A stretch of DNA of 28,926 nt from a virus (lineage: Duplodnaviria > Caudoviricetes), in the IMG/VR virus record IMGVR_UViG_3300030099_004644, positions 1 through 28,926 of that record. One strand, given 5' to 3'. The notes under the pieces are model-generated. The model was not told where the DNA came from. It did not search any database and was given only the letters and a program-made list of their open reading frames with translations. A program made the position numbers and the translations under genes. Shown piece by piece: positions 3,229 to 25,538 of the stretch (its first letter is position 1; each line of letters opens with the position of its first letter).

Positions 3229-3284
3229 AAGATATATGTGACTATTGCGGTTGTGATCCCTGTGATTGTGAAGACCAAAAATAA
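3225..3284 (+). CDS. 19-aa Cys-rich peptide MKDICDYCGCDPCDCEDQK
   Basis: ATGA overlap with the upstream stop (translational coupling); 5 Cys in CxxCxCxxCxC; lies just before the intergenic region and terminator. Confidence 0.55.
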   Translation: MKDICDYCGCDPCDCEDQK

Positions 3285-3384
3285 AAATATAATTTGAAAA
3301 TAAAATAAAATAAAACTATATAAATCAGGCCGAAACAAATTCGGAGTTTTTAACATTTATATGATTAACGTCGTTAGATGAAGA

Positions 3385-3424
3385 AAAGAGAAGGTACGCC
3401 GGCTTTGTCCGGCTTTCTCTTTTT
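3385..3424 (+). terminator. Intrinsic terminator
   Basis: GCCGG-ctttgt-CCGGC stem, extendable by AAAAGAGAAG/TTTCTCTTTT, followed by a T-rich tail. Confidence 0.6.
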
Positions 3425-3485
3425 GTGTTGAATACAAGATCGCCTTTTTTATGTTATCATCATTGTGATAAATGGAGATCTCAAC

Positions 3486-5536: not shown

Positions 5537-5561
5537 AAAATAATACTGAAAAAAATCAACT

Positions 5562-5590
5562 TTGCAAAAGTAAAAAAAAACAGGTATACT
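5562..5590 (+). promoter_or_regulatory. Sigma70-type promoter for the protease/capsid operon
   Basis: TTGCAA-17 bp-TATACT, A-rich upstream, 17 bp before ATG 5608. Confidence 0.7.
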
Positions 5591-5607
5591 CTCAACGGGT
5601 GAATAAT

Positions 5608-7098
5608 ATGATAATCAAAAAACTATTTGTTGAACGAATCGCTCCAGAAGAAGAGCCAGAAGACGCGCCTTTGATGGCTTCTTTTATTGCTTCCACTTCA
5701 GCCGAAGATCGTTATGGAGACGTCATAGCGCAATCATGGGATTTGACTAACTATCGAAAGAATCCAATTATATTATTTAATCATGACGCTAACCAACTAC
5801 CGATCGGAAAAGGCGATGTCGATGTAGTAGATGGAAACTTGATGATCGATATCACTTTTGATATGGACGATCCAAGAGCCGCCGAGATAGGCCGCAAAGT
5901 TAAAGCCGGTTTTCTGAATGCTGTGTCTGTTGGTTTTAATCCAATTGAGGCCGTCGAAAGATCAGAACTTCCAGATGGTCATTTTGCTAAAGGTGAGAAG
6001 GGGACATTCTTTAAGAGTGCCGAGCTTCTCGAAGTTTCAGTCGTGACGATTCCAGCAAATCAAGAAGCTGTATCATCCAAAGAATATCGAAACATTGAAA
6101 ACGTCGAGTCGATGACTTTATCGAAAGATCAGGCTATGGAGTTATACAAGTATATAGAACAACTTCGTGGAAGTGTTAAGGCACATGCGAGACAAGCCGA
6201 TTTCATCGAAAGCCTTTTTTCAATGGATGACAAATACTATGGTGATGATGAGGACTCGGAGTCAGAAGAAGACAAGCCAAAGACCAAAGATGTAAACTAT
6301 GGTCTAAAGTCAAACGCTAAAGAAGCGATGGAAGCACTCAAAGAGTCAACACAGAAAGCACTTATCAACAAAGCTGAACAGCACAATGAAGAATATGGAG
6401 ACAATCCAGAGAAGAAACTAACGAATAGAAATTATTTAGCTGTTTCCTATCATCGAGGTTTGGCCGCATTTTTTGGAAATCCTTCTTCCGTTCGTCCTTC
6501 TGTTTCAAGTGCTGATCAGTGGGCTATGGCCCGAGTCAATGGTTTACTCTTTGCGATGAGGACCGGAAAGTTCAAAAGCAAACCCTACGATGTTGATCTA
6601 TTACCGAAAGATCATCCACTATCGAACGCCGAAGAAGAGAAGCAAATCACGAAAGAGATATCTAACTTTCCGAAAGCCGGAGAAGATAAAAAGGTATCTT
6701 TGCGGAACTCACAATATCCGATCTTTCCTGTTGATTATGCCGAGAAGATAAAACTTGAATATCCGTCGATATGGAGCAAGGGGGGAAACATCTTAGGAAA
6801 TCAACAGTTTAGACTTTTGAAAAAGATACAGGAAAACAGCGGAGTACCGGAAACAGACAACCAAGAAGAAGCGATTCGACTTCGTGAAGCTTGGGCGGCT
6901 CGACATCTTCAAGATTTTCGAACAGCTGGAACAGTTGCACAAATGAAATGGCTTGTCATCGGTGAAAAAGGTCTTCAACATATGAAAGACACAATCAACG
7001 CCGAGATCGACAAACTTAAAAAGCTTGGCTCTTCGCCAAAAGATCAAGAAGCAAAATCTTTTGCTTTTTTGTACGATCTATTAAAACAAACAGACTAA
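5608..7098 (+). CDS. HK97-type prohead protease with a long C-terminal extension
   Basis: DRYGDVI, NPIILFNHD, AVSVGF and ELLEVSVVTIPAN motifs; start taken as ATG 5608, downstream of the promoter. Confidence 0.9.
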   Translation: MIIKKLFVERIAPEEEPEDAPLMASFIASTSAEDRYGDVIAQSWDLTNYRKNPIILFNHDANQLPIGKGDVDVVDGNLMIDITFDMDDPRAAEIGRKVKAGFLNAVSVGFNPIEAVERSELPDGHFAKGEKGTFFKSAELLEVSVVTIPANQEAVSSKEYRNIENVESMTLSKDQAMELYKYIEQLRGSVKAHARQADFIESLFSMDDKYYGDDEDSESEEDKPKTKDVNYGLKSNAKEAMEALKESTQKALINKAEQHNEEYGDNPEKKLTNRNYLAVSYHRGLAAFFGNPSSVRPSVSSADQWAMARVNGLLFAMRTGKFKSKPYDVDLLPKDHPLSNAEEEKQITKEISNFPKAGEDKKVSLRNSQYPIFPVDYAEKIKLEYPSIWSKGGNILGNQQFRLLKKIQENSGVPETDNQEEAIRLREAWAARHLQDFRTAGTVAQMKWLVIGEKGLQHMKDTINAEIDKLKKLGSSPKDQEAKSFAFLYDLLKQTD

Positions 7099-7114
7099 AA
7101 AGGGAGTTCTTATA

Positions 7115-8596
7115 ATGTCTGATTATAATGTAAATGAAAACATGGTCGCGGAAGCCAAAGGTATACTTGAAGGAATCCGAAGCCATCAAAAAAATGCAGA
7201 AGATAAACTAACTAACCTTGATCGCCAAGTTGAAGATCTGAAACTTGCACAACGCAAACTTTCAGAAGCTTACACCAAAGCGGCTCCAGAATACACCGGC
7301 GAAGAAAGCAAGCTTTCCCGCTACATCAAAAAAGATGGAAATCTTCGAACTCGTGTTGAGCGTTCTCAAATCTCGATCAATGGTCAAGGTGTTATTGATG
7401 CTGAACTAAAAGGTCTTCTCGATGATAGCCCGATTTGTGAGTGGCAAGGTGATCTACAAAAGATCGTTCGTCAACGTAACTTTGCGCGAATGTTGATGGC
7501 CAATCCTCACACGCCGAAGATGGATGTCAAGCTTCACAAACATTTAGAGCTTGCTCCAAAATCAATAAAGCCACAAATCGAACGTGTATATGCTGGAGGA
7601 GCCGGTTCCGGTGCTGAATGGACTCAAGCACGATTTGTCGAAGAGCTTGCTCAAGATTATAAAACACCTCGATCACTCCGTGCACTTCTTGAAGAAGTAC
7701 CGGTCGATCGTGGTTCTTTGTTGATTCCTCGATTGAGCAAAGGTGGACAGCCATATGTTCAAACTACGATCAGCGATGACAATCCATATGCAGCCGCTAA
7801 CCAGTACAAAGCATCAACCGTAACAACAGCACAAAAGACGATCAACATGCAAGGTATGACCGTTCGATATTTAATCGATCAAGCTGTTATGGAAGATTCC
7901 GCTTTGGCCTTAACTCAAATCTTGAGTCGTGATCTTGTTGATACTATCGAAAGCGGTTTCGAGGATGCAATGATCAACGGTCAGACCAGCGGCGCTTTTG
8001 ATTCTGATTTTGCAAACTGGAATCCTCGATCTCGTTGGACTGTTACAGGAAATCCAAACGACCACAGAAAAGCATTTGATGGTTTTCGTCAATTAGCGGC
8101 TAACAAGTCAACTCGAAACATGGCCGGCGATCCTGCAGATATGGCTTTCAGTGATATCATTACCGCGATCTCTTCAATGGGCGAATATGGCGCGAGCCAA
8201 GATAAGGTTCTCGTTGTATCTCCAGAAGCATTGATCAAGCACTTCTTGGATCTTAGCGAACTTGTAACCATAGATAAGTTTGGCGATAAAGCTACTGTAC
8301 TGACTGGAACACAACTTGGATCAATCATGGATATGCCTGTTATCATGTCTCGATTTATGACCGCGGACCTTGATGCAAGCGGTAATTATACAAGTACACC
8401 TTCAACCATGACCGGATTTGTGATCTTTGACCGATCAAGTTTCCAACAATATGTTCGTCGTGGTCTACAGGTTGAGACACAACGAGACATAACGACCGGT
8501 GCGATGTCTTTGGTTGCTTCTTTCCGTGGTGTCATGGCTTCCAGTGATTCAGCACTTGCGAAAAACTGCGCGTTTATTACAAACTTAAATAGTTAA
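7115..8596 (+). CDS. Major capsid protein (HK97 fold, N-terminal coiled-coil delta domain)
   Basis: Follows the protease; GGGAG SD; N-terminal coiled coil; EDAMING, DGFRQLA, G.IMDMPVIMS motifs. Confidence 0.88.
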   Translation: MSDYNVNENMVAEAKGILEGIRSHQKNAEDKLTNLDRQVEDLKLAQRKLSEAYTKAAPEYTGEESKLSRYIKKDGNLRTRVERSQISINGQGVIDAELKGLLDDSPICEWQGDLQKIVRQRNFARMLMANPHTPKMDVKLHKHLELAPKSIKPQIERVYAGGAGSGAEWTQARFVEELAQDYKTPRSLRALLEEVPVDRGSLLIPRLSKGGQPYVQTTISDDNPYAAANQYKASTVTTAQKTINMQGMTVRYLIDQAVMEDSALALTQILSRDLVDTIESGFEDAMINGQTSGAFDSDFANWNPRSRWTVTGNPNDHRKAFDGFRQLAANKSTRNMAGDPADMAFSDIITAISSMGEYGASQDKVLVVSPEALIKHFLDLSELVTIDKFGDKATVLTGTQLGSIMDMPVIMSRFMTADLDASGNYTSTPSTMTGFVIFDRSSFQQYVRRGLQVETQRDITTGAMSLVASFRGVMASSDSALAKNCAFITNLNS

Positions 8597-8602
8597 TCAA
8601 TC

Positions 8603-9220
8603 ATGTCTATTGTAAGTGTATCAACAATCAAAGAGTATCTTCCAGAACTCGCCGGTTCAACTGGAGCGGATACCGATTTGACATCATTGCGGGATCGAGT
8701 AGAAACCGCGGTCGCTCGTTATCTCGGTTTTCCGGCTCCGGATGGATCGTTGAATCCTGTTCTTGATGTCTCGACTTATACGGTCTTTGTTGATTCACCT
8801 ACAATGTATGATTCTTTTACTTTACAATTACCGATAGCACCGATCGCGACTATTACTTCCGTACATGCGGACATCAATCGCAAATACGAAAGTGATAGTC
8901 TGATCGATGCTTCGGTCTATTCTTTTAATGCTCAACTTGGAAGGATCTACATAGATCCGAATCAGGCCACTACACAATTCCAAACCGGCTATCGTACTAA
9001 CAAAGTAATTGTTACAGCTGGCTACACTTCTGTAACTTTACCGGATGATCTGGAACATGCAATTTGTGTTTGGTGTTCTCAACTACACCGAAACAAAGCC
9101 AACCAAGGAAAAGAACAAATCAGTCAAGCGAACTCCACGGTTAGAATATCGGTCAAAACGATTCCGGACGAGGTCAAAGAACTATTGAACCCGATCAGAC
9201 TTCCGCGAGTTGTGTTATGA
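8603..9220 (+). CDS. Head-tail connector (HK97 gp6-like)
   Basis: VSVSTIKEYL start, LQLP.API..ITSV, TAGY...LPDDLEHA, IPDEVKELL.P.R; synteny. Confidence 0.8.
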   Translation: MSIVSVSTIKEYLPELAGSTGADTDLTSLRDRVETAVARYLGFPAPDGSLNPVLDVSTYTVFVDSPTMYDSFTLQLPIAPIATITSVHADINRKYESDSLIDASVYSFNAQLGRIYIDPNQATTQFQTGYRTNKVIVTAGYTSVTLPDDLEHAICVWCSQLHRNKANQGKEQISQANSTVRISVKTIPDEVKELLNPIRLPRVVL

Positions 9221-9627
9221 GTCGAGTATATAGATTTGATCAGTTTGTTGATTTGATGAACAGAAAACACCTCAACACAAGAAAGACCTTTGAACGTTTA
9301 GCGGTAAGAGTAAGAAGGCAGCTTTCATATGAGGCAAAGAAGAACGCGACCACATATCCACGAAGAAGAACCGGCGAACTTTACAAGTCGATCAAGGCAA
9401 CAGTCAAACCGACACAAGACGAATTCTTGATCTCTCTTACGGCTGGAAATGAAACCGCTTTCTATGCGCGATTTATTGAACTTGGAACCAGCGGTAAAGG
9501 ATCGATGGCTCCGAGATATTATCTTCGTCGAGCTTTTGAAAAGGTGAATTCATTTGTTCCGAACGATTTAAAACAATATCTCGGTTTATATTTGCGAGAT
9601 CCTGATTTCTACGGTCAACGAGAATAA
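9217..9627 (+). CDS. HK97 gp10-like neck/tail component
   Basis: TGELYKSI, YARFIELGT and MAPRYYLRRAF motifs. Confidence 0.82.
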   Translation: MSRVYRFDQFVDLMNRKHLNTRKTFERLAVRVRRQLSYEAKKNATTYPRRRTGELYKSIKATVKPTQDEFLISLTAGNETAFYARFIELGTSGKGSMAPRYYLRRAFEKVNSFVPNDLKQYLGLYLRDPDFYGQRE

Positions 9628-9628
9628 C

Positions 9629-10081
9629 ATGACCGATTGTCGAATAGTCAAAATCCATAAGAAGATCCAAGAACTGATCGGTGTATCATATGCGGCCGGC
9701 TTTTCTGGTTTGAATCTTACAGGAAATGTAATTCGCGGAATGGTTGATGAGCCACCGGTGATCCCGTTTGCGTGTGTAAGGTTCGAAGATGCGATCGAAG
9801 ATTATGGTCCTACTATGGGACGTTATCGCGGTGATGCTCTCTTCGAGATTTATTGTTTTGTCGGTGGTTCTTCATTCGAAGAACGTAGTGATGCGGCTTT
9901 GAATATTTCAAGCGACATGATCAGCAAACTGACAGCTATCAGAAATCTATCTTTGCCTGATGATGTCGATGATATCAAGTGTGATTTCACAAGTATCGAC
10001 GGTGACAAAGTCGGGCTTAATGGAATCGGAATCGGTTATATCCGTGCAACTATTAAATTCCAATCCGATAACGGTGTATAA
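9629..10081 (+). CDS. Putative tail terminator
   Basis: Size (150 aa), acidic and beta-rich, positioned between the gp10-like gene and the tail tube. Confidence 0.55.
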   Translation: MTDCRIVKIHKKIQELIGVSYAAGFSGLNLTGNVIRGMVDEPPVIPFACVRFEDAIEDYGPTMGRYRGDALFEIYCFVGGSSFEERSDAALNISSDMISKLTAIRNLSLPDDVDDIKCDFTSIDGDKVGLNGIGIGYIRATIKFQSDNGV

Positions 10082-10083
10082 CT

Positions 10084-10851
10084 ATGACATGGTATGATTC
10101 AAATTTCAAAGATCGTTATCCTGTGGCTATCAATGTAATCGGTGGATCTGAATCAGCTGGAACCGAAGATGTGCAAATTTTAGTTCCAAAGGATTTTGAC
10201 CGATTTTGGAGTTCCATTCGGCCGGATGGATTTGATATCGTGATAGCTGATCCTGATGGAAATGTCGAAGTATTCCAAAGAAGTGTCTTCAATTTTGCAA
10301 ACAGATCTTTGATTTTGCAAGCTGATAACGTAAGTTTTCAGAATAGAAACAGTGTTGCACTGCTTTACATTTACTTCAACAATCCAGATCAATCTTCGGA
10401 TCTTGCTGGAAGTTTTACGGCAAGCTCTCCAAAGATCGGAACAATAGCTTTGAATAGACCTTCTTCTTTGTCAGTTGGAAATCTCGAACAAGGTCAAGGA
10501 AATGACTCACCGGCCGCATCTTTTCAAAAAACAGAAGACGAAGAGGTTTATATCTGGTTTAGAGTCGGCTCTTTGTTATCGCGACGAATCAGTCAATACA
10601 ATGATCATCTTGATTATGAACAGATAAGCTATATCAAAGTTCAGTCACTTGATGCAGCTGGCTCGAATGATGCGAATCGATACATAGAAGGCGAGACAAG
10701 ATTTTTGCCTTCTTGGGTCGGTGTTAAAGTTAAAGCAGGATCGGCCGGCGTTGATTATACTATAGCTGTTGAGGTTGTCACAACTTCCAGCGGTCTAACT
10801 CAAACCTTGAGCGCGCGCGCACTTTTAAGAATCAGAAACCTTTTACCTTAG
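10084..10851 (+). CDS. Virion protein: DUF2341-like N-terminus plus fibre-adaptor-like C-terminus
   Basis: WYDSNFKDRYPV...RPDGFDIVI N-terminus; FQK..DE...AGSAGVDYTIAVEVVTTSSG C-terminus. Family names recalled, not searched. Confidence 0.45.
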   Translation: MTWYDSNFKDRYPVAINVIGGSESAGTEDVQILVPKDFDRFWSSIRPDGFDIVIADPDGNVEVFQRSVFNFANRSLILQADNVSFQNRNSVALLYIYFNNPDQSSDLAGSFTASSPKIGTIALNRPSSLSVGNLEQGQGNDSPAASFQKTEDEEVYIWFRVGSLLSRRISQYNDHLDYEQISYIKVQSLDAAGSNDANRYIEGETRFLPSWVGVKVKAGSAGVDYTIAVEVVTTSSGLTQTLSARALLRIRNLLP

Positions 10852-10861
10852 GATTAAAATC

Positions 10862-11821
10862 ATGGCTCAAATATTCGGAAGAAACTCTTTTATCAATGCA
10901 GGCGAAGAAGGTACATATGGAACCATTTGCGCAGCTTTCCAAAATAGCGCGCGTTTGTATTCTGTATCCTTGGCGAGAACTCAACAACGAGATCGAAAAG
11001 CTGATCTATCAACAAGCGACGGAGCCTTCTCACAAAATCATTTCGATATTTTCGAGGAAGCCGGCGGAGCGATCGAGATTCCTTTGAGATATGATCATGC
11101 GGGCCTTTTCCTTTATGCGGCTTGTGGACAAAAAACCACGACTCCAGACGGTGCGCTTTTCATCCATGATTACAAATGTGGAACCACCGATCTTCCGGCT
11201 ATCTCGATCCAGTTGCAACGAGGATCAGGAAACAGAGAAACCTTTCTTGGTTGCAAAGTTCAGTCAATGGAAATAAGCGGTGCGGCCGGCGAAGAGATCA
11301 AAGCATCATTTGAGATCATCGCACAATCAGCAAATACTCGATCCGGTACAGCTTCACCAACATTTGGCGATGGAAAACAAGCTTTTCATTATGAAAGTTC
11401 AGCAATGCAAATCACACCTTCCGCCGGCGGTGCGACTGTTAACTATAAGTTGATAAACTTCACGCTAACTTTGAACAATAGCATTGAACGAAAAAATGTT
11501 CTTGGTTCCAAGTTAACAGAAGAACCAGAGATCACCGACTTCCGATCTGTTGAATTATCAGCGGAATGCTATCAGGAAAATGATACGCTTTATGATCTAC
11601 AGCTATCCGGAACCCCTCATGATATCGTGATCGAGTTTGTTGAGACTGGAACAAGTAATTATATCAAGTTGTTGATCCATAATGCAGTAATCACGGACTT
11701 TGACGACGCTATTGATACGGTCGGTCGGTTAACTCAAAGCTTCACCTTTTTAGGCTTTTCCGATTCATCAAATGAAGCTTTGGAAATCCAGATTCGAAAT
11801 GATAGGAATGATTCTATTTAA
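10862..11821 (+). CDS. Major tail tube protein
   Basis: GEEGTYG, GGAIEIPL, F.GCKV.SMEIS and FTLTLNN pattern; directly upstream of chaperone and tape measure genes. Confidence 0.82.
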   Translation: MAQIFGRNSFINAGEEGTYGTICAAFQNSARLYSVSLARTQQRDRKADLSTSDGAFSQNHFDIFEEAGGAIEIPLRYDHAGLFLYAACGQKTTTPDGALFIHDYKCGTTDLPAISIQLQRGSGNRETFLGCKVQSMEISGAAGEEIKASFEIIAQSANTRSGTASPTFGDGKQAFHYESSAMQITPSAGGATVNYKLINFTLTLNNSIERKNVLGSKLTEEPEITDFRSVELSAECYQENDTLYDLQLSGTPHDIVIEFVETGTSNYIKLLIHNAVITDFDDAIDTVGRLTQSFTFLGFSDSSNEALEIQIRNDRNDSI

Positions 11822-11860
11822 TTTCTTTTAATAAAATAAAATAAAAAAATTGGGCTGACA

Positions 11861-12349
11861 ATGAAACATATAATCAATCAAATAATTTCACAATCGAAAT
11901 TCACAGTATCCGCTTTTGCTGGAAAGCTACTTCTCGAAGGTCGGATTCTTTCACCGAGTGAGGCACATGCGGCCGGTCTAACATCAGGATTGTTAGCGGC
12001 CGCGATGGCTGATCCAAAACAACTCCAAGCCATGAGTCAAATCAAAGATGATGAAACAGATCAGAACTTCGAAGAAATTCTGCAGATGGCGAAAAGAATA
12101 AGACCGGAAAACATCGAAGCTATGGGAGAAGCACACGACAAAATTCTTTGTCGAGTTATTAAAAGAGCGAGTTCCGACAATGGTGAGACATGGCAAAATA
12201 TCATTCTCGTTGAAGGAGTCGATCAACAAGATGCGGAAAAAAACCGGCTTTGGGTCGGCATGATTCCAGAAGATGACCGTAAGCAAATCCTCGATCATGC
12301 TTTACAAGGTCACAAGAAAGCCGTCGAAAGTATAAGGGGGTCCCTTTGA
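11861..12349 (+). CDS. Tail assembly chaperone (gpG equivalent)
   Basis: Between tail tube and tape measure; ends AGG GGG TCC CTT TGA. Confidence 0.75.
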   Translation: MKHIINQIISQSKFTVSAFAGKLLLEGRILSPSEAHAAGLTSGLLAAAMADPKQLQAMSQIKDDETDQNFEEILQMAKRIRPENIEAMGEAHDKILCRVIKRASSDNGETWQNIILVEGVDQQDAEKNRLWVGMIPEDDRKQILDHALQGHKKAVESIRGSL

Positions 12350-12350
12350 A
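12335..12350 (+). promoter_or_regulatory. prfB-like +1 ribosomal frameshift signal
   Basis: AGGGGG-3 nt-CTT TGA A, the same architecture as E. coli prfB AGGGGG-TAT-CTT-TGA-C; the +1 frame is open to 12569. Confidence 0.8.
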
Positions 12351-12569
12351 AACGATCCTCAAATCTTCGATCTGTTTGATATCTTGGCCGATAGTTATGG
12401 CGTCCTGCCTTCTGATCTTTTGGGCCTCTCTTTTCAAGAGATCATGTTCAATATCAGGTGTTTGAAAAGCCGATCCTATCGGATGAATAAATTGATGAAG
12501 CAAAGTAACAGAAAAAAAGCTATGTTATTTCCGACTGTTAACATTTCTGATTTGCTGAGAAGTTTGTAA
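12348..12569 (+). CDS. Tail assembly chaperone frameshift extension (gpT equivalent)
   Basis: ENDPQIFDLFDILADSYGVLPSDLL...; no SD-backed ATG of its own near its 5' end; stops immediately before the tape measure ATG. Confidence 0.72.
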   Translation, partial: ENDPQIFDLFDILADSYGVLPSDLLGLSFQEIMFNIRCLKSRSYRMNKLMKQSNRKKAMLFPTVNISDLLRSL

Positions 12570-12570
12570 A

Positions 12571-15033
12571 ATGGCCGAAAACATAATCAAATATATACTC
12601 GACATCGAAACAAAAGGAGCCGAGAGAGGACTCAAAGAGGTCGCCGGCGATTCTAAAAAAGCGGCTTTGAGCCTTGACAAGCTGGAGAAGGAAAGCAAAG
12701 AAGCATCTTCTGGACTTGCGATGACAGGAAAAGCTTCGAAGAAATCAGCTATCTCTTTGAAAAGCTTTACAAATGCGGCCAAGTTTGGAAAAGATGCTTT
12801 GTTATCTTTGCCGTCGATTCTTCAGAATGTTGGCGAATCAATGTTCAACTTTACGCGTGATGCCGTCGATGCAATTAACCGGCTCAATGATTTATCAACA
12901 GCTTCGAATTTAAGCGCGTCAACTATTCAAGCGGTGAGTCTTGCTTTTGAGGCATCCGGACAAAGCGCAAGTCAAGCGGATACATTCGTCAAGAAGTTTC
13001 CACAACGACTCGCGGACATAAGAAAAGAAGGATCTGATAGCAATCGAATCTTAAAACAAATGGGAATCGAAATCGGAAATGCGGCGGACGGCTATCGCTC
13101 CAGTGATGCCGTTTTCAAAGATATTATCACCACACTTCAGAACATGGAAGACGCCGAACTAAGAACGGCCGCGGCTCAAAGGATATTTAAGCGCGACGTC
13201 GGAAATCTTTTGGTTGCACTTGGAAACACAGGACCGATCGAGAACTTTATCAAGTTCACTGAAAAGTTTGGAGTCGACACTCAAAAGAGTGCAGCGGATG
13301 CGGCCGAGTTCCAGCAAAAGCTCGCGGCTCTTGGCTTGGCTTTTGCGTTTGCGCGTGATCGTATTGTTGAAAGCTTTGGAGGTTATAAGTCATTTAATAA
13401 GTTACTAAGTGTTACAATTGGGGCTGTTGTTTTCGCGGCTGAAATGATCAGGCTTTTTAGTAATGAATTTATAACATTAGGAAACATAATCACTAAAATT
13501 TTAAAATTTCAGTTTAAACCTTTGCTGGATGTTTTGAAGGGTTTACAGCTTTTAAAAGACGTTGGTTTTGTGGATAATTTAGCAAATGATATACAAAGGC
13601 TTTCAGGAGCAAAAGCCGGAACTGGATTTTTACAAAACTTTGAAGGAAGGCTCAATTCAGCAAAAGCAGCGGCGGCCGAAGCAAGAGAAGCAATTGCAGG
13701 TTTTAATAAAACAACAGAAAAAACCGGTAAAAGTGGCAAAACGGCGAAAACAGCTTTGGAACAATTGAAAAAGCTATTCTCAGATCTTGATAAAGAAGCC
13801 GGAAAAGATTCAGCCGGATCAAAGAAGACCGGTAAGAGTGCGGCCGAGAAAGCCGCCGAAAGATTAATCAAGGCACAAGAGAAGGCAAAAGAAAAGCTCG
13901 CGGACTTGATGAGAACTCTTGAAATGGGAGATATCACTCTTGAAGGTGCTCTCAAAAAAACCGGCGGATTGATTCGGCTCTTTGAAAAACTCAAGATGCC
14001 TATCGATCCGATTCTAAACTTCAAAGCCGAACTCGAATCGCAAATCTTCCAGAACATGCAAGACGAAATGTCGAAGATCGCGGATGAACTGAATAATATA
14101 GATCTATCAGGATTGAAACAACAATTTAGAATTGCGGCTATCGAATTTGGAGTCAATATAACAGAAGCCATATCTGGATCTTTTCAAGCCGTGCAAACCT
14201 TAGTAACACAAATAGCGGGACCACTCGCCGGAGCGATTACTTCAGCTTTGGGATCAATATCAGCAATCGGCCAACAACTGAAAGAGGTTGGACAAAAAGC
14301 GGTCGATGTTGAAAAGGAAAGAAGAGTAACACAAGCCAAAGAACGGATCGAAGCACAACGAGGAAGATCTTTAACCTCGGCGGAAATGAAACAGCTTGAA
14401 GAGACAGCTGGCTTTCTCACAGCAAAAGAACAGGAAAAGATAATTCGAGATGCACAATTAAAAGATGCGAGAATGAGAGTTCAAAACTTTGTCGAAGGGT
14501 TCGCGGTCGCGCTGGAAGTTTTACCGGCTATCCTTATTAATGTTTTACCACGTGCGATCGGGCTTGGTATCGTTGGACTTTTGAAAGCTATTTTTGATCT
14601 TCCGGCTACTATTGGAAAAGAGTTTGGAATTGCAATTGGTAAACTTTTGAAAACATCACGAAATGAGGTTCTTGATGTTGTCGGTGCGATCCTTGATACT
14701 GGAGCCGAGATCGTAACACTAACCGCAATGGATACAAGAACCTATAATCGAAGATCCGGCGGCTATATTCCATCCGCTCGATCTGGAATGATGTTCACCG
14801 GAGCGCAAAAAAGCGGACTTGCTTTGTTACATGAAAATGAATTCGTCGTTCCGGCTTCTGGACAAAAGCCGCAAACAGTTGAACGGACCATGAAACAGAA
14901 CACCGGCGGGATCACGGTCAATGTCTCCGGAATGGTTGTCGAGTCGAACGCCGTTGATCAGATAGTACGCGAGATCGAAAGAAGGTTCTCGACTTTTGGA
15001 TCTGCTCAATCAACATTATTTGGTGGTAGTTAA
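12571..15033 (+). CDS. Tail tape measure protein
   Basis: 820 aa, Ala/Lys/Leu-rich helical; C-terminal ALLHENEFVVPA and GGITVNV typical of tape measures. Confidence 0.92.
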   Translation: MAENIIKYILDIETKGAERGLKEVAGDSKKAALSLDKLEKESKEASSGLAMTGKASKKSAISLKSFTNAAKFGKDALLSLPSILQNVGESMFNFTRDAVDAINRLNDLSTASNLSASTIQAVSLAFEASGQSASQADTFVKKFPQRLADIRKEGSDSNRILKQMGIEIGNAADGYRSSDAVFKDIITTLQNMEDAELRTAAAQRIFKRDVGNLLVALGNTGPIENFIKFTEKFGVDTQKSAADAAEFQQKLAALGLAFAFARDRIVESFGGYKSFNKLLSVTIGAVVFAAEMIRLFSNEFITLGNIITKILKFQFKPLLDVLKGLQLLKDVGFVDNLANDIQRLSGAKAGTGFLQNFEGRLNSAKAAAAEAREAIAGFNKTTEKTGKSGKTAKTALEQLKKLFSDLDKEAGKDSAGSKKTGKSAAEKAAERLIKAQEKAKEKLADLMRTLEMGDITLEGALKKTGGLIRLFEKLKMPIDPILNFKAELESQIFQNMQDEMSKIADELNNIDLSGLKQQFRIAAIEFGVNITEAISGSFQAVQTLVTQIAGPLAGAITSALGSISAIGQQLKEVGQKAVDVEKERRVTQAKERIEAQRGRSLTSAEMKQLEETAGFLTAKEQEKIIRDAQLKDARMRVQNFVEGFAVALEVLPAILINVLPRAIGLGIVGLLKAIFDLPATIGKEFGIAIGKLLKTSRNEVLDVVGAILDTGAEIVTLTAMDTRTYNRRSGGYIPSARSGMMFTGAQKSGLALLHENEFVVPASGQKPQTVERTMKQNTGGITVNVSGMVVESNAVDQIVREIERRFSTFGSAQSTLFGGS

Positions 15034-15035
15034 AC

Positions 15036-15890
15036 ATGGGAAATGCAAAGTTCTATTTTTATCCGGAACCGAACGGTGGTCGGTTAGTTGAGATTGATCT
15101 TGGTGAAAGACTCGGCGAGCTTTTTTTTGATTTTGAAGTTCAACAAGAAACAGCTACATCGATGGCCGGCGGGATGTATCGAGCCGTAACGATGAGCAGA
15201 CAAGTGATCACCATTCAGCGCGATCGGCTAAAGCTCGGCGAAGACATCGCTAACAAAATGCGAGCGATGGAAAATCATTTGAACCGCGGTTTCTCGGTCG
15301 CCTTCTGTAGTGATGCTGATAAGAGTTATTGCTTTCCTGTTTCAAACTTTCCTTATACAGGAGACACAAGTTTTCAGGTCTTAGGAGATCCATTTCGTAA
15401 CATGACCGGCTCGAAACTTCCGACCGAAAATGATTACATCGCATTTGATACGCCAAATTTAGCCGCTACATATGAAGTCGGAAAATATACAAGTGCGACC
15501 GGTGCTTTCACTTCGGTCAACGGTGGCACCATGAATATCTCAGAAGGTCTATCTTTCACTTACACAAAACCGGCTTTTGTTCGATATTATAGATTTTGGC
15601 CATGTTTGAGACTTGCTTCAAATGTTGGACAATCGATCATTACTAACGAAAACGGGATCTTGTTTTCGCTGGCTCTTCAGTTGGTTGTCGATACTTCGAC
15701 TTTGTTCTCTTTCCATCCTATAATGACCGGTGATGATTCGACGGTGAACTTCGATCTGATTCCATCCGGTGAAATAGTACCGCGAGAAGTCGCATTTGAT
15801 CAAGGTACATCTTTGAACACACTGGATCGAGTAGCAAGGGAAATAATTGAGCCTTTTCCTGCAAACCATAGTTTTCCGCATCGAGAATAA
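15036..15890 (+). CDS. Putative distal tail (tail tip) protein
   Basis: First gene after the tape measure; beta-rich. Synteny only. Confidence 0.5.
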   Translation: MGNAKFYFYPEPNGGRLVEIDLGERLGELFFDFEVQQETATSMAGGMYRAVTMSRQVITIQRDRLKLGEDIANKMRAMENHLNRGFSVAFCSDADKSYCFPVSNFPYTGDTSFQVLGDPFRNMTGSKLPTENDYIAFDTPNLAATYEVGKYTSATGAFTSVNGGTMNISEGLSFTYTKPAFVRYYRFWPCLRLASNVGQSIITNENGILFSLALQLVVDTSTLFSFHPIMTGDDSTVNFDLIPSGEIVPREVAFDQGTSLNTLDRVAREIIEPFPANHSFPHRE

Positions 15891-15892
15891 TC

Positions 15893-17503
15893 ATGTCATG
15901 GTCTCATGGTTTCAGACAAGCTCTAACACATCGATCGATAGTACCTTCTTATCGTTTGGCGATTCGTTCTTTCACGGCTGTAAGTATTATCTTCAACATA
16001 AGATCCACAGGACGATCAATAGCAATAGATCGAGAGGGTCCGACTATCAACGGCCAAAGAATCATTCCTCTTCGATGGTCGATCACTTTCGGCGGTTTTA
16101 CGGTTCCGATTGTCGGTGATATGTCCGGCTTGTTTCCAGCGGTGAGAAAGGGATCTTTTGCCGAGTTGTTTTGTGAGATAGACGGTCACGAAGAGAGGAT
16201 CGCATGTGGACAACTTCGATCAATCAATAAAAGATACAATCGATTTATCTTGGAGTTTGTCGATCTGATTTCAGCTTTACAGACAAGATATGAAACCACA
16301 CCGGCCGCCGGTACACCAGAAGAGCCCGATCCCTTTTCATTATTTTATTCAGCTGGGATAGAAACGACATTATCGTCAAACTGGACAAATCACGGAGCCG
16401 GTTTTCCTACGCAATTGAATCTAAATGATATCCGTGGATTCCACAAAGAAAATGGTACTTATGGAGTTGTCAGATGTCAACCAGCAAGCGGAAACGAGTT
16501 TATCCTTCAATGGGATAGTAAGACAACCACATCCGGAAATGCTGGCTTTCTTACTCTTTCACATACTTATCAATTTAGTTCGACTATATATCCGACTGTC
16601 TATAGTCCAGTTAACTTGACAACAAGCGACAAGGTTTTCACGGCTCAATATTTACAAGGTTGGCCGGCTGATATCTTCGGAAAAATGTTAATGGGCACAA
16701 CCGGAACCGGATCGGGCTTATTAACATATCCACCGGCGATGAATAGCGGGATCGGATTGTCTTCTTCTTTCTATGATCAACAAGATGCAGACACTTGGAA
16801 AAGTTACTTGAAAGGAGCGGCTCCAAATTTATCGGCTTATGATATTGGCTATGTAGTTAACTCACCGATGACCGGCGGCTTTCGTAACTTGATCGAAGTA
16901 TTCGCGAAAGTTGGTCATTGGCCTGTTTGGAGGCAGAACGCGATCAGCTATCGATCTTGTTTACTGCTCAACTCGTCAAATATTACGGTCGCGGCCAAAA
17001 TTTATGATACTGATATCTTTGAACTGCGCACCCACGAGCTTTATAGTAATGATCAACAGAATACCTTTTTCCGTTCATCGATCATCTATCAGAACAAAGC
17101 CGGTTTGACTTCTTCTATCACCTTCACAACCGGATCAACGAAAGCCGCTTCTCTTCCTGTTCAGTCTAACAATGAAAGAAATGTAACCGGCTTATATGGT
17201 TATTCACCTTGGACCGCAACAGCTGATCGATCCAGTTTGGCAAATGGAGACGTTCAAAGATTAAAAGAATGGGATTTGTTTAACTATGAAAAGCTTGTTC
17301 TCGTGGTCAAGTTAAAATATGCGACTCTTTGTTGTGGTGATGTTGTTGCAATTCATAGCGGGATCTTTTATGGAGTAAACCAAGGAGCCAACGATCGAAC
17401 ATATGCCGGAACTCGTTTTATGGTTGTCGGTGTAGACTATTCGATTTCTTCGGCTTCTTGTGTTCTCACTTTAGCCGCTCCATATCGACAAAGTGCTTTA
17501 TGA
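15893..17503 (+). CDS. Putative tail hub / baseplate protein
   Basis: Second gene after the tape measure; C-terminal LCCGDVV...FMVVGVDY...LTL resembles hub proteins. Confidence 0.5.
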   Translation: MSWSHGFRQALTHRSIVPSYRLAIRSFTAVSIIFNIRSTGRSIAIDREGPTINGQRIIPLRWSITFGGFTVPIVGDMSGLFPAVRKGSFAELFCEIDGHEERIACGQLRSINKRYNRFILEFVDLISALQTRYETTPAAGTPEEPDPFSLFYSAGIETTLSSNWTNHGAGFPTQLNLNDIRGFHKENGTYGVVRCQPASGNEFILQWDSKTTTSGNAGFLTLSHTYQFSSTIYPTVYSPVNLTTSDKVFTAQYLQGWPADIFGKMLMGTTGTGSGLLTYPPAMNSGIGLSSSFYDQQDADTWKSYLKGAAPNLSAYDIGYVVNSPMTGGFRNLIEVFAKVGHWPVWRQNAISYRSCLLLNSSNITVAAKIYDTDIFELRTHELYSNDQQNTFFRSSIIYQNKAGLTSSITFTTGSTKAASLPVQSNNERNVTGLYGYSPWTATADRSSLANGDVQRLKEWDLFNYEKLVLVVKLKYATLCCGDVVAIHSGIFYGVNQGANDRTYAGTRFMVVGVDYSISSASCVLTLAAPYRQSAL

Positions 17504-18417
17504 CTTTGGACGAAAAAATCTCCTATAATAAACATTCTGCTTTGGACTTTGGTTGGTCGCCGGAATGGTTCGGACTCCATATAGAACAGTTTGATCAAAG
17601 ACTTATCGAGATCATTGAAGAATTTCAATATGAGCATGATCTCGAAGTTGATGGTCTTCTTGGTGAATCAACATTTCGCCGGTTGTATACATATATAAGT
17701 CAGGACAAAGTAGATTTTGAAAATAAAAATAAAACAAAAGAAAACGCAAAGATTATTTTTCGTGGCGAAGAATATCCGATCATGTGGTCAAAGGTTGTCT
17801 TATGGAATGAAGAAGGCGGTCTAAGTTGTAAGAGTAGAAAGTCAAAAGGTAGATCGCCAAGTTATTTTGTTAATCACTGGGACGTTTGCCTTTCTTCTTC
17901 TTCGATGGCTCGCGTCTTGAAAGCTCGATCTTTGGGTGTTCACTTTTCCATTGATAATGATGGAACTATTTTCCAGTTATGCGACATGGAAGACATAGCT
18001 TTTCACGCCGGAGGTCATAACAGAAAATCGATCGGCCTTGAAATCTCGAACGCCTATAGCTTAAAATATCAAGATTGGTATATTAAAAAAGGCTTTGGAA
18101 AAAGACCGATTCAAAGCAATGACTATGTACATGGTAAGCGGCTAAAGTCACATCTCGGATTTTATGATGATCAACTGAATGCGGCTTGCGCTCTTTGGGC
18201 GGCTGTCAGTTTGGCGACCGGTATTCCTTTGCAAGTGCCAAGGATTCACGATGCTGTTGATCATGTTGCGTCTTCTGGATCTTTCAAAGGCTTTTGTGGT
18301 CACTATCATTTAACCAAACGAAAGATCGATCCGGCCGGAACTGATTTTCATCTATTACAAGATAAAGCATCGTTAATCAAAGTTGCGATGAAGCGTATGG
18401 ACTACGGTCGAAAATGA
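17500..18417 (+). CDS. Endolysin: peptidoglycan-binding domain plus N-acetylmuramoyl-L-alanine amidase (Amidase_2)
   Basis: FQYEHDLEVDGLLGESTF (PG-binding); NHWD, VHFSIDNDGTIFQ, AFHAG..N..SIGLEI, GHYH...KIDP. ATGA-coupled start at 17500. Confidence 0.9.
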   Translation: MTLDEKISYNKHSALDFGWSPEWFGLHIEQFDQRLIEIIEEFQYEHDLEVDGLLGESTFRRLYTYISQDKVDFENKNKTKENAKIIFRGEEYPIMWSKVVLWNEEGGLSCKSRKSKGRSPSYFVNHWDVCLSSSSMARVLKARSLGVHFSIDNDGTIFQLCDMEDIAFHAGGHNRKSIGLEISNAYSLKYQDWYIKKGFGKRPIQSNDYVHGKRLKSHLGFYDDQLNAACALWAAVSLATGIPLQVPRIHDAVDHVASSGSFKGFCGHYHLTKRKIDPAGTDFHLLQDKASLIKVAMKRMDYGRK

Positions 18418-18871: not shown

Positions 18872-18983
18872 ATTGGTTCAACCAATACGTAGACTTCAAA
18901 TCTCAGCCTTCTTTTTTTATCTTTCCGTATAAGGTTGCATGAAGATCGCTGAGATTCGAAGTTTAGAAATTGGTTCAACCATT
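18872..18983. repeat. Nested palindromic element A
   Basis: ATTGGTTCAACCAAT ... ACTTCAAATCTCAGC ... TATAAGGTTGCA ... GCTGAGATTCGAAGT ... ATTGGTTCAACCATT; an inverted homologue lies at 24139-24251. Confidence 0.85.
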
Positions 18984-19159: not shown

Positions 19160-19199
19160 TAATATTTATGTTGATAAAATAATATTTATGGGCTATAAT
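19160..19199 (+). promoter_or_regulatory. Strong sigma70 early promoter with overlapping direct-repeat operator
   Basis: TTGATA (19171)-17 bp-TATAAT (19194); TAATATTTATG repeated at 19160 and 19180. Confidence 0.85.
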
Positions 19200-19273
19200 A
19201 ATAACAGATGGAGCGCTTACCAAGTGCCGATTCTATACCCGAGATACCTCTAACACTCAAAGGAAAAATCAAA

Positions 19274-19582
19274 ATGAAAAATGTAGGATATGAAATCATT
19301 ATATGGAGCGGTGGCGACAACCACATTACAGGAGAGATTGCAACAGGCACTGTAGGTATTTTTGACCCAGATGAGCATAAATGGGCTTTAATGGACTATA
19401 TGCAAAAAATAGAAGAAGGATTCTTAGGCGCGTATTTAACCGTGAAGAAATACACGGGAGGCAATTGGGTTGAGTTTGGTCATAATATGGACGACTGTGA
19501 GCCGTTAAGCAATTTGCCCAAGTACTTACAGAAGAAACTGAGAAAGCTTATATCTTTTGATAGAGCCCGAAACAACTTGTAA
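19274..19582 (+). CDS. Hypothetical early protein (102 aa)
   Basis: ATG 19274 follows the shared leader AACACTCAAAGGAAAAATCAAA. Confidence 0.7.
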   Translation: MKNVGYEIIIWSGGDNHITGEIATGTVGIFDPDEHKWALMDYMQKIEEGFLGAYLTVKKYTGGNWVEFGHNMDDCEPLSNLPKYLQKKLRKLISFDRARNNL

Positions 19583-19645
19583 CCCTATAGCCTGAGTAAG
19601 CTTTTTAACTGCTCAACACTCAACACTCAAAGGAAAATCAAATGT
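19581..19645 (+). repeat. 65-bp structured leader repeat, copy 1
   Basis: 63/65 identical to 20392-20456; GAGTA/TGCTC pairing, CTCAACA heptads, AAGGA SD and ATG. Confidence 0.95.
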
Positions 19646-20064
19646 ACGAAATCAAATGTCTCGAATGTCATGAAACAAATACTTATAATCATCTTGAATG
19701 GTCGGCGGCTGTTTGCCAACATTGTAAACAGGAAACATATAATCCTCATTATAATCAGCCTTCTATTTATGCAGCTCTCGCCGGAATCGATCGGACTCGT
19801 CGAGATCATGGTAACAAAGGTTATCATACACCTTCGATCAGCCTTTCAACCGGCGAGAAGATCAGTCTCGCCGAATGGCGCGAGTCTCTTCTATTTATTC
19901 ATTCACTGATCCAGCGATACACAATCCACATGCAAAAGAATCAATATGATTATGCCGATCAGCTGGAAGAATATATCGCTGATCAATGCCTTCTCTATTT
20001 CGTTGATATTGATAAAAGTATACACGAGCACTATGAGATAACAGTCGAAGTGATGACAAGCTAA
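19642..20064 (+). CDS. Hypothetical protein with N-terminal Zn ribbon
   Basis: CLEC...CQHC; shared leader. Confidence 0.7.
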   Translation: MYEIKCLECHETNTYNHLEWSAAVCQHCKQETYNPHYNQPSIYAALAGIDRTRRDHGNKGYHTPSISLSTGEKISLAEWRESLLFIHSLIQRYTIHMQKNQYDYADQLEEYIADQCLLYFVDIDKSIHEHYEITVEVMTS

Positions 20065-20073
20065 TCGAAGCTT

Positions 20074-20125
20074 GTGTCTTCACCTGATATCGGTGAACTG
20101 ATGAGATCAAGATAGATCGAAACAC
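20074..20125 (+). ncRNA. Type III hammerhead ribozyme
   Basis: GUGU-C(cleavage after 20078); stem I UUCACC/GGUGAA; CUGAUGA; stem II GAUC/GAUC; GAAAC-AC. Loops UGAUAUC and AAGAUA are complementary (UAUC/GAUA). Intergenic. Confidence 0.88.
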
Positions 20126-20148
20126 TTAACACTTAAAGGATAATCAAA

Positions 20149-20361
20149 ATGAATGAAAAAGAATTCAAATCATGGGCTTTTGTCAAGCCTGAGACCCACA
20201 CTGAAAGTTATTGCACCTGTCCAGAATGCGGAGCTGGATTCTTTCTTTGGTTTGAAAACCATCATACAGATGATGAAGATTCAATTCAAAAAAACAGCCT
20301 TTGTACGCACTGCTTAGAAGAACTCGATGAAGAGTCAGAAGAAGAAGAGGAGTCATTTTAG
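20149..20361 (+). CDS. Small acidic Zn-finger protein
   Basis: CPEC...CTHC, poly-Glu tail; shared leader. Confidence 0.7.
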   Translation: MNEKEFKSWAFVKPETHTESYCTCPECGAGFFLWFENHHTDDEDSIQKNSLCTHCLEELDEESEEEEESF

Positions 20362-20391: not shown

Positions 20392-20456
20392 AACCCTATA
20401 GCCTGAGTAAGCTTTCCAACTGCTCAACACTCAACACTCAAAGGAAAATCAAATGT
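20392..20456 (+). repeat. 65-bp structured leader repeat, copy 2
   Basis: Matches 19581-19645 except TT versus CC in the linker. Confidence 0.95.
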
Positions 20457-21105: not shown

Positions 21106-21356
21106 AATGTTCAAAATGTGGATATAAAAATAAGACTCTCAGAAAGTCTTTGACTTGTAAATATTGCGGAGCCGATTTGATACCGGCTGGTGATGACAAG
21201 AACTTTAAGACCTATTCGTTCAAAGATGACCCTGCCATCATGGCCGAGCTTGATCGTATAGGTTCAATTCTCAGCGAGTCACGAAAAGGAAAGGTGACAA
21301 GATCCAAATTGATTCGGTTAGCGGTTCGTCAGCTCTCCAAGGAGTTGCAACCATGA
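21102..21356 (+). CDS. Zn ribbon plus ribbon-helix-helix DNA-binding protein
   Basis: CSKC...CKYC followed by TYSFK...ELDRI...TRSKLIRLAV; ATG 21102 after a degenerate shared leader. Confidence 0.7.
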   Translation: MKCSKCGYKNKTLRKSLTCKYCGADLIPAGDDKNFKTYSFKDDPAIMAELDRIGSILSESRKGKVTRSKLIRLAVRQLSKELQP

Positions 21357-21424
21357 GCGACGAGAACTTTATTGATATTCTTGTGATGTCACTTGTGATC
21401 TTTGGTCTTGTATTTTTCATTTGA
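21353..21424 (+). CDS. 23-aa hydrophobic membrane peptide MSDENFIDILVMSLVIFGLVFFI
   Basis: AAGGAG SD at 21339 and ATGA coupling; a single TM helix. Confidence 0.65.
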   Translation: MSDENFIDILVMSLVIFGLVFFI

Positions 21425-21449
21425 CCATAGATCACGAAAAAGGTATAAC
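21421..21449 (+). promoter_or_regulatory. Sigma70 promoter of the small RNA
   Basis: TTGACC-17 bp-TATAAC. Confidence 0.75.
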
Positions 21450-21455
21450 TCTATA

Positions 21456-21518
21456 ACATGGATCTTGATTATCCTTGTTGAGTGTTTTAAGCGGTCCACG
21501 GTGGGCCGCTTTTTTTTT
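21456..21518 (+). ncRNA. Putative trans-acting antisense sRNA (~60 nt) complementary to the shared early-gene leader
   Basis: Own promoter and terminator; core TTGATTATCCTTGTTGAGTGTT is the reverse complement of AACACTCAACAAGGATAATCAA. Confidence 0.75.
21489..21518 (+). terminator. Intrinsic terminator
   Basis: AAGCGGTCCA-cgg-TGGGCCGCTT followed by a T run. Confidence 0.9.
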
Positions 21519-24138: not shown

Positions 24139-24251
24139 AGTGGTTGAACCAATTATCCAACCTTGCAATCTCAGCCGTTTTCTTTGGTTTACCTGTAACC
24201 TTATAGGGATAGATTGCTGAGGTTTCGATCTTACATATTGGTTGAACCAAT
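24139..24251. repeat. Nested palindromic element B (inverted relative to A)
   Basis: TGGTTGAACCAAT ... AATCTCAGC ... TGTAACCTTATA ... GCTGAGGTT ... ATTGGTTGAACCAAT. Confidence 0.85.
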
Positions 24252-24534
24252 AAAACCGATCCAAAAATCGATTCTAAGATCAGCCGGATATATTGACATA
24301 TCTATCGAATAAAGATCCAAGATTTGACAATAAACATTTGATTTTTGACCGCAAAACGTGTTACATAACAACGTAGTGTTAGTAATTGTTCCAATGTCTG
24401 GATTATTTTAATTTTATTCATAGAAATATATAAATAGTAAATTTTTATTAAAAAAAATAAAACTGAAAACAAAAAAAAACTACTAACCTCCGCCGAAAGG
24501 CAAACACTCAACACTCAAAAAAAGGATAATCAAT

Positions 24535-25251
24535 ATGAGTTTGATTCTTACTCTTGAAGAGGAGTACAACATGTCTCCTCTTGAATCTCGGTTCGTCGAG
24601 CTTTATAACTCGCACGGATGGCAAACCAGCCAAGATAGAAAGCCGCTCGCGGTTTTCGCCAACATCCCGAACCCTTCAAAGGTTGACATATACTTCGAGC
24701 TTGACAAGATCGACGAATGGTTAAGGTCGAAGCAATCTTCCAAACGCTGGAAGGTGAACGAGTGGATCGACTTCTTGACCAGCTGGCTTGGTCGAGTAAA
24801 GCGGCCGAAGCTACAAACCAAGGATCGAGACATAAAGAATATGCCGTACTATATGGTAATATATGATCGAATCATAGAAAGATCAGCAAACCGAATGGAC
24901 TTCCCCGAAGAGGTCCGCGAGAAGTATTGGAGAATGTGGTCGTGGTTGACAGAAGGTATTGATCCAACAAGAAAAGATCGATCGCGCGCCGGTAAGGCGA
25001 TGAAGGAATGGATCGAGAAGATCGCGCTCAACTATAACAAAGAACAAAAGAACCTATACTATAAGAAGCTGAACAAGCTTGTCGAAAGAGGTGATTTTGA
25101 CAATAACGACATGTTGGACTTTCTTGGCTGTCATTCGGCAGGTGTACTCAATGAAGTTCTTGATCTGCTATATGGTCCAGAACTTGACCGGCCCGATCTG
25201 GACAAAATGCGTTGTGATGTTACTTTGAGAATTGATAGGAGTATTTTATGA
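24535..25251 (+). CDS. Putative replication-associated protein
   Basis: ELDKIDEWL...K...WIDFLTSWLGR resembles C-terminal domains of phage replication initiators; shared leader; second possible start at 24571 (GAGGAG). Confidence 0.4.
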   Translation: MSLILTLEEEYNMSPLESRFVELYNSHGWQTSQDRKPLAVFANIPNPSKVDIYFELDKIDEWLRSKQSSKRWKVNEWIDFLTSWLGRVKRPKLQTKDRDIKNMPYYMVIYDRIIERSANRMDFPEEVREKYWRMWSWLTEGIDPTRKDRSRAGKAMKEWIEKIALNYNKEQKNLYYKKLNKLVERGDFDNNDMLDFLGCHSAGVLNEVLDLLYGPELDRPDLDKMRCDVTLRIDRSIL

Positions 25252-25469
25252 TTATACGAATATCAAAAGACAAATGGATAAACTTAAAAAATGTCGAGAT
25301 GATCACTCTTACAAAGAAGATAGTCGATATCAATGTTTTTGATTATCCTCCTGAGCGTAATGATATTATGACCTTAAATTTTCATTGTACTTCTGGTACA
25401 GTTTATAAGTATCATGACACTTTATTAAATATAAAGATATTACTGAAAAAATACAAATTGGATTTATAA
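25248..25469 (+). CDS. Hypothetical protein (AT-rich)
   Basis: AGGAG SD and ATGA coupling. Confidence 0.65.
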   Translation: MIIRISKDKWINLKNVEMITLTKKIVDINVFDYPPERNDIMTLNFHCTSGTVYKYHDTLLNIKILLKKYKLDL

Positions 25470-25538
25470 TGTTGTACATGATCGAAGACCTCCAAAATAA
25501 TACAAAGAAGATAGTCGATATCAATGTTTACGATTATC
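25310..25538 (+). repeat. 38-bp direct repeat (25310-25347 and 25501-25538)
   Basis: TACAAAGAAGATAGTCGATATCAATGTTT(TT/AC)GATTATC, 36/38 identical. Confidence 0.9.

Follow-up and report, generated by a model that had tools for sequence, protein, structure and literature searches.

Can a small RNA control a self-cleaving ribozyme in a tailed phage? The question is raised by a virus record (Duplodnaviria; Caudoviricetes; IMGVR_UViG_3300030099_004644) that was analyzed over its entire 28,926 bases, hereafter the window. A first-pass annotation had described a hammerhead ribozyme fused to a shared gene leader and had suggested that a small RNA of the phage could switch this ribozyme off as well as block the ribosome binding site (RBS).

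Genomic setting and hammerhead ribozyme

The window encodes terminase, portal, capsid, tail tube, tape measure and endolysin genes (951-18417), which identify a tailed phage, and a protein family scan placed two methyltransferases at its end. The runs covering most of the region carry marine metagenome labels, indicating a marine phage. Among the 20 runs listed, no RNA run contains this DNA, a result that carries no information on expression. No cultured phage relative was found by blastn, and no GTDB genome that could point to a host matched the ribozyme pattern or the 132-aa neighbor. Among the 36 proteins scanned, 16 of which have no PHROG family, no integrase, repressor or antirepressor was recognized.

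A strong promoter-like site (19171-19199) and a terminator (21489-21511) enclose a series of small ORFs. The majority are preceded by a repeated leader in which AACACUC is followed by an AAGGA site. We infer that this series is an early operon, and its features are compiled in Table 1. Relatives were drawn from viral and metagenome contigs and give five lineages with seven ribozyme copies, three of them in L035 (L035a-c). Two further relatives were excluded as not independent: L032, which is 99.96% identical to the window, and L033, which matches L002 across the region compared.

Table 1 Features of the early region and of its predicted RNA targets
Feature	Position	Strand	Basis
Sigma-70-like early promoter	19171..19199	+	11/12 consensus; consensus match only
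First cassette leader, one AACACUC and Shine-Dalgarno (SD) site	19252..19276	+	Weaker predicted target, -19.0 kcal/mol
Cassette leader; a different conserved hairpin replaces the ribozyme, then AACACUC twice and SD site	19590..19644	+	Repeat D3
140-aa ORF, function unassigned	19642..20064	+	Ends inside hairpin P0
Hairpin P0, 7 bp, with stop codon of ORF 19642-20064	20056..20075	+	Hairpin in 7/7 copies
Type III hammerhead ribozyme, predicted cut after C20078	20074..20125	+	Sequence, RF00008, covariation
Predicted loop 1/loop 2 pseudoknot, 3-4 bp	20085-20091 / 20109-20114	+	Covariation
Predicted small-RNA seed target: G12, A13, A14, stem III 3' strand, leader start	20119..20131	+	Cofold
Leader with second AACACU copy, AAGGA SD-like site and ATG	20126..20151	+	Repeat families D1, D4, D6
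70-aa zinc-ribbon-like ORF	20149..20361	+	Weak Pfam/PHROG matches only
Second copy of hairpin-plus-leader, before HNH gene	20401..20455	+	Repeat D3
Candidate small-RNA promoter, TTGACC-17-TATAAC	21421..21449	+	By eye; promoter scan did not list it
Candidate small RNA, ~60 nt	21455..21515	+	Kept in 5/5 lineages; 5' end estimated
Leader of 238-aa ORF 24535, without ribozyme	24500..24537	+	Two perfect 12-nt blocks; repeat I5

The surroundings contain further repeats. An inverted pair of ~110-bp elements (18872-18981 and 24141-24251) flanks the early operon and the next three genes. Each element is bounded by the near-palindrome TGGTT(C/G)AACCA and both are also present in L002 and L034; they are possible operator, origin or inversion sites. 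A 38-nt direct repeat (25310-25347 and 25501-25538, 95% identity) lies inside two neighboring small ORFs that share the peptide TKKIVDINV, which suggests a recent duplication.

Every core and stem element that had been listed for the type III hammerhead was found in the sequence. Stems I, II and III of the window's copy measure 6, 4 and 4 bp. Stem III joins GUGU (20074-20077) to ACAC (20122-20125) and is followed by the cleavage-site C (20078). Stem I pairs 20079-20084 with 20092-20097 around loop 1 (UGAUAUC), the core is formed by CUGAUGA (20098-20104) and GAA (20119-20121), and stem II pairs 20105-20108 with 20115-20118 around loop 2 (AAGAUA). The proposed loop pairing of UAUC with GAUA is also possible. 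A check against Rfam gave a match that stays below the family threshold: in a 301-nt search, RF00008 aligns to 20071-20128 with 36.4 bits (E 1.7e-6) against a gathering cut-off of 48.5 bits, and a scan of the whole window did not report the ribozyme. The score falls short because three stem III pairs of the model are absent or unpaired here. Scores in relatives are 34.7-39.5 bits in L035 and 35.4 bits in G006 and G007. The locus is assigned to the ribozyme class and is not counted as a member of Rfam RF00008. A type III descriptor matched the window at this ribozyme only, and one of 300 simulated genomes had a match. A second site (24490-24505) resembles stem II plus GAAAC and was rejected as a ribozyme, as it has no core and is not conserved.

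All seven copies have the CUGANGA and GAAA core segments and an NUH cleavage site. Only N7 and H17 vary, both in L034 (U to A and C to A, respectively) and both at tolerated positions. Stems I and II are closed and stem III is open, and the 14 stem pairs are standard in every copy, without a mispair next to the core; 125 of 126 cells are paired across the copies, and none of 500 shuffles reaches the score. Four of the 18 pairs change compensatorily (two in stem I, one in stem II and one in the pseudoknot), and none does so in stem III. In a sequence-level test, three pseudoknot pairs are kept in all seven copies and the fourth in six; the outer U-A pair is broken in L034. In the pseudoknot, both sides of one pair differ between A-U and G-C, which divides the copies three to four. 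Because of the kinship between the copies, and because the window's copy served as the template for the structure, the covariation represents a few events rather than seven. The ribozyme is retained while the downstream gene is exchanged: L034 shares the window's 70-aa ORF in this slot, which holds other genes in L001, L002 and L035. Conservation and covariation thus support the ribozyme well, and its predicted self-cleavage is very likely on these grounds.

With a lineage-specific ribozyme pattern, and likewise with two protein scans, viral contigs yielded no relatives beyond two close ones that were already known, and these were also the only matches of a type I/III descriptor among 80 loci with the 612-aa gene. 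L057 and L058 are fragments without a visible early region, and four DNA runs yielded no further variants. Such an arrangement is widespread, a related core pattern matching 27 loci. The unrelated phages among these provided 11 type III copies, found with a pattern that forced GAAACAC, and their stem III has 5-7 bp compared to 4 bp here. Ten of these copies lie 20-25 nt upstream of an ATG and one is lost to a contig end. Possible antisense partners of the unrelated hammerheads amounted to 10-12-nt matches in 17 loci. Their shared SD tag had no opposite-strand match in five records, one of them at least 90% complete, and a partner pattern gave one match with one mismatch, at control level and inside a coding frame.

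Seven unrelated phages (L003, L007, L008, L017, L022, L023 and L029) carry type I hammerheads, with two or three copies at each locus, and a C/A-rich stretch comes after the majority of these. In L035 (2892-2970), the cleavage-site strand is able to pair with a downstream GGACAU near the SD site, so that, by this fold, the cut might free the RBS there; the window's copy does not have this pairing.

Candidate small RNA and its predicted target leaders

The candidate small RNA consists of a 5' hairpin, an anti-SD segment (21465-21476), a seed (21477-21487) and a terminator stem (21489-21511) with a U tail. Its locus has a fold z of -4.4, and the single-stranded GAGUGUUU is unpaired with a probability of at least 0.94 in all five lineages. 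The -10 element of the window's putative promoter is without the conserved last T, and the promoter is clearer in L035 (TTGACG-17-TAGGAT). Promoter spacing and terminator are kept in all five lineages. Alternatively, the small RNA could arise by processing from the 3' end of the early mRNA. Its Rfam matches all stay below their family cut-offs, and C4 is absent among the 12 matches at E<=5. Upstream, a 23-codon hydrophobic ORF (21353-21424) overlaps the stop of the CopG-like gene and is kept in L001, L002, L034 and L035; its own stop codon falls within the -35 box of the small-RNA promoter.

Target prediction over 37 gene starts, five of them at estimated positions, ranked four leader-bearing genes at the top, namely 20149 (-30.0 kcal/mol), 24535 (-28.6), 20453 (-25.9) and 19642 (-24.4). 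Across 2312 sliding windows, and setting aside the locus of the RNA itself, the leaders of 24535 and 20149 take the first two places. The remaining leaders are not clear of the background, where, for example, an unrelated window at 8926 scores -26.1. The second-best target, the leader of ORF 24535, was found in the window, L001, L002 and L034. It contains the sole perfect AAACACUC of the + strand (24502), so the seed may be kept for a ribozyme-free target. In the near-complete G007, the 10-nt seed target is confined to the ribozyme and the leader of the ORF-24535 type. One of the target leaders heads what we guess is a replication gene, which has no family match. ORF 24535-25251 (238 aa) itself has no Pfam or PHROG family and three homologues, and the gene in its position in the distant L057 and L058 likewise has a C/A-rich leader.

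The anti-SD part of the RNA has changed in L035 together with the first leader, resulting in a perfect 18-nt match, and this leader binds its own RNA at -26.5 and the window's RNA at -18.6 kcal/mol. The co-change rests on one leader in one lineage, since the window's RNA, which is longer than that of L035 and binds most other L035 leaders equally or better, equals or beats L035's own RNA on four of five leaders. An antisense RNA directed against the shared leaders is thus supported by conservation, an unpaired seed, the target ranking and a single leader co-change. From the sequence, we consider the small RNA probably real and antisense.

A second intercistronic element occupies the ribozyme's slot at 19590-19615 and 20401-20426. 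It is a hairpin with a 6-bp stem and a 10-11-nt loop ending in AAC, and it also occurs in L001 (369), L002 (3126, 3611 and 4868), L034 (4947 and 5949, where both arms change together) and L035 (3265). It had no match in Rfam. A similar hairpin immediately precedes a type III hammerhead in the unrelated L019. The element is possibly a processing or protein-binding site.

Overlap of the predicted seed target with the ribozyme

As claimed in the first-pass annotation, 21477-21487 pairs with 20120-20130 in 11 bp with one G:U. The cofolded duplex is longer than noted there (13 bp, 20119-20131), and a second predicted duplex block of 11 bp lies at the SD region (20137-20147). The observed -26.8 kcal/mol was not reached once when the antisense part was put through 2000 mononucleotide shuffles (mean -10.3, sd 2.8). 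Part of the seed match comes free, as GAAAC is dictated by the hammerhead consensus. In the window's best complex (net about -23 kcal/mol), G12, A13, A14 and the entire 3' strand of stem III are paired, five bases are looped out and the SD site is covered. The best predicted complex occupies A13, A14 and 15.1-15.4 in six of the seven copies. Keeping the ribozyme folded costs 4.9 (window), 9.8 (L002), 5.2 (L034), 1.4, 6.8 and 5.2 (L035a-c) and 0.3 kcal/mol (L001), in energies that omit the pseudoknot and the Mg2+-bound core, both of which favor the folded ribozyme. L001 is uncoupled because of its additional leader repeats.

The first-pass annotation did not include hairpin P0, which shares G20074 and U20075, the two outer bases of stem III. 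Its arms differ in sequence in L035a, and the Thr-Ser ending (T139-S140) of the upstream protein does not vary among its 10 homologues. When P0 is present, stem III has a probability of at most 0.01 in all seven copies under a model that ignores coaxial stacking, so the RNA on its own may be slow to cleave itself. Strand exchange would allow both helices to form together, which weakens P0 as a simple block of the ribozyme. Neighboring helices can speed up or slow down hammerheads (PMC2777235). Three roles are conceivable for P0, namely a brake that the ribosome releases, a partner for stacking, or a cap at the 3' end of the upstream product; whichever applies, P0 would assist the small RNA, since AAACAC stays open.

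The explanation that we favor, and to which we give slightly less than an even chance, is that the hammerhead cuts the early mRNA and that the small RNA silences the leaders and, where it binds first, blocks the cut. Its basis in the sequence is the hammerhead core, covariation in the stems and the pseudoknot, the conserved anatomy of the RNA gene and the complementarity; transcription, cleavage, repression, gating and timing are what we infer from these. Early in infection, the hammerhead between two early-operon cassettes would cut the mRNA after C20078. The upstream piece would carry P0 as a 3' cap, and the downstream piece would begin with a 5'-OH about 70 nt upstream of the ATG. The 5'-OH end may slow RNase E-dependent decay of the downstream piece in this host. 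As the small RNA accumulates, its single-stranded seed would dock on AAACAC, which would be mostly open owing to the 4-bp stem III and the competition from P0, and would then zip across the SD site. Binding would shut off the early cassettes and ORF 24535, and bound transcripts would stay uncut. Because the seed matches the ribozyme's own GAAACAC strand, the small RNA would stop the cut when it is first to bind. Small-RNA binding at cellular levels and hammerhead cleavage both occur on a scale of seconds to minutes, so either could come first.

It is also possible, at less than even chances, that the ribozyme cuts constitutively and fast and that the small RNA affects translation only, after the cut or in a downstream register. 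The overlap would then be a by-product of one leader motif that starts with the ribozyme's GAAACAC. A second register of the window's leader, absent from the first-pass annotation, agrees with this: through the AACACU copy, the small RNA binds at about -19 kcal/mol beside the intact ribozyme in the window and L034. L002, L035b and L035c have no useful register outside the ribozyme (ribozyme-sparing binding only about -4 kcal/mol) and speak against it, whereas the uncoupled L001 is in its favor, as are the target leaders, most of which have no ribozyme. The small RNA is predicted to bind the cut 3' product as strongly as the uncut RNA (-23.3 vs -23.2 kcal/mol). Unrelated phages place type III hammerheads just before start codons with no antisense partner found in the searches above, and the published proposal is processing of polycistronic phage RNA (PMC3088659). 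Stem III is short and invariant in this lineage and, by prediction, largely unpaired until the cut; this would leave the seed time to bind and speaks against the constitutive reading.

That the ribosome is the main gate is unlikely, and would be compatible with the favored explanation. P0 would hold the cleavage-site strand until the ribosome ending ORF 19642-20064 melts it, so that the cut would need upstream translation, and the small RNA would also act indirectly by silencing the leader of this ORF. In each of the seven copies, P0 contains the upstream stop codon, which precedes the cut by 16 nt (six copies) or 14 nt (one copy). This fixed spacing is not independent evidence, since six of the seven P0 copies share one ancestral sequence. 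When the RNA is masked to stop+12, the hammerhead becomes the minimum-energy fold in five of seven copies (stem III p 0.20-0.48, up from at most 0.01). The gap between P0 and stem III, before coaxial stacking and tertiary contacts, is 9.5 kcal/mol in L035b, where P0 covers the whole GUGUC; it is just 2.4-4.2 kcal/mol in five copies and absent in L035a, and the ability of the two helices to coexist speaks against this gate. The automatic alignment has no P0 change on both sides, and one such change, in L035a, is visible just in that copy's own fold. Capping of the upstream product, or stacking with stem III, may be all that P0 does. Very unlikely is a further reading, in which the repeats are DNA recombination sites for cassette swapping, 21455-21515 is an operon terminator only and the hammerhead is an inactive relic. 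Gene exchanges do fall exactly at the AACACUC leaders, and the low RF00008 score and the imperfect -10 element of the small RNA in the window fit this reading. Against it, two stems and the pseudoknot show compensatory changes and the core varies just at tolerated positions, and a terminator has no need of a 24-nt leader match, which moreover co-changes in L035.

The proposal of an antisense-gated ribozyme therefore stands in part. Its ribozyme and its leader-directed RNA are supported and gating is physically plausible; the ribozyme-sparing register, the uncoupled L001 and the nearly uncoupled L035a count against it. Given an active ribozyme and a real antisense RNA, it is likely that the small RNA slows cleavage. 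Gating as a selected function, judged from the sequence, is doubtful, and the data do not separate selection for gating from the common use of a single motif. An RNA-only logic gate, in which the ribosome finishing the upstream gene arms the hammerhead and the small RNA disarms it by pairing with the catalytic core, is somewhat unlikely. We are similarly hesitant about the other aspect of such a gate, by which a single small RNA would set both the cut of the early mRNA and the translation of its genes.

Relation to known RNA regulators

Phage hammerheads and anti-RBS RNAs are both already known kinds. Type III hammerheads with a loop-loop pseudoknot cluster between prophage or phage genes, including variable prophage genes (Perreault et al. 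2011, PMC3088659). That study reported in vitro cleavage for three tandem arrangements and activity of 14 of 18 consensus-type ribozymes, and it describes the pseudoknot as typical where stem I exceeds stem II by 2 bp in type III. The ribozyme described here fits this pattern, with a difference of 2 bp and a pseudoknot present. It differs from the hammerheads covered there in its stem III, which has just 4 bp, is contested by the stop-codon hairpin P0 and has a 3' strand that is also the predicted seed target of a phage RNA. In the parts of PMC3088659 drawn on here, regulated cleavage in phages is proposed only in general terms; its Dataset S1 may hold similar phage hammerheads.

The small RNA is reminiscent of the c4 antisense RNA of P1/P7 (PMC5320573), likewise a short trans-acting phage RNA with one block on the RBS and one upstream, and a two-block pairing of this type is predicted here (13 and 11 bp). 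c4 has three stem-loops with loop seeds, whereas the candidate has two hairpins and a linker seed. Unlike in c4, one of the targets here is a ribozyme, and no integrase, repressor or antirepressor accompanies the RNA among the scanned proteins. The small RNA thus works like c4 on prediction and is not a c4 member, given its two-hairpin fold and the lack of a C4 model match. The pT181 ctRNA (RF00242), with two hairpins ending in a terminator, is a weak structural match at 33.7 bits, far under its 56-bit cut-off. Unlike a ctRNA, the small RNA is not counter-transcribed, since it lies on the same strand as its targets, 1.3-3 kb away.

A natural hammerhead gated by a small RNA was not found in the open-access literature, mostly at abstract level. 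The nearest case is engineered: in E. coli, a trans-RNA seeds on the message, unzips stem 3 and inactivates a hammerhead (Klauser and Hartig 2013, PMC3664830). In this synthetic TR-HHR, the cut frees a sequestered RBS, whereas in the window the RBS is predicted to be accessible both before and after cleavage, and the small RNA would cover it directly.

What self-cleaving ribozymes do for bacteria and phages is presented as an open question in the literature (PMC6765202; PMC3088659). This locus makes regulated cleavage testable with two RNAs of <130 nt and comes with natural controls, namely L002 without an alternative register, the uncoupled L001 and the co-changed RNA-target pair of L035. If gating is true, it would be a natural counterpart of engineered RNA-responsive hammerheads; if it is false, the locus would still be a clear phage early regulon under one antisense RNA, with ribozyme punctuation.
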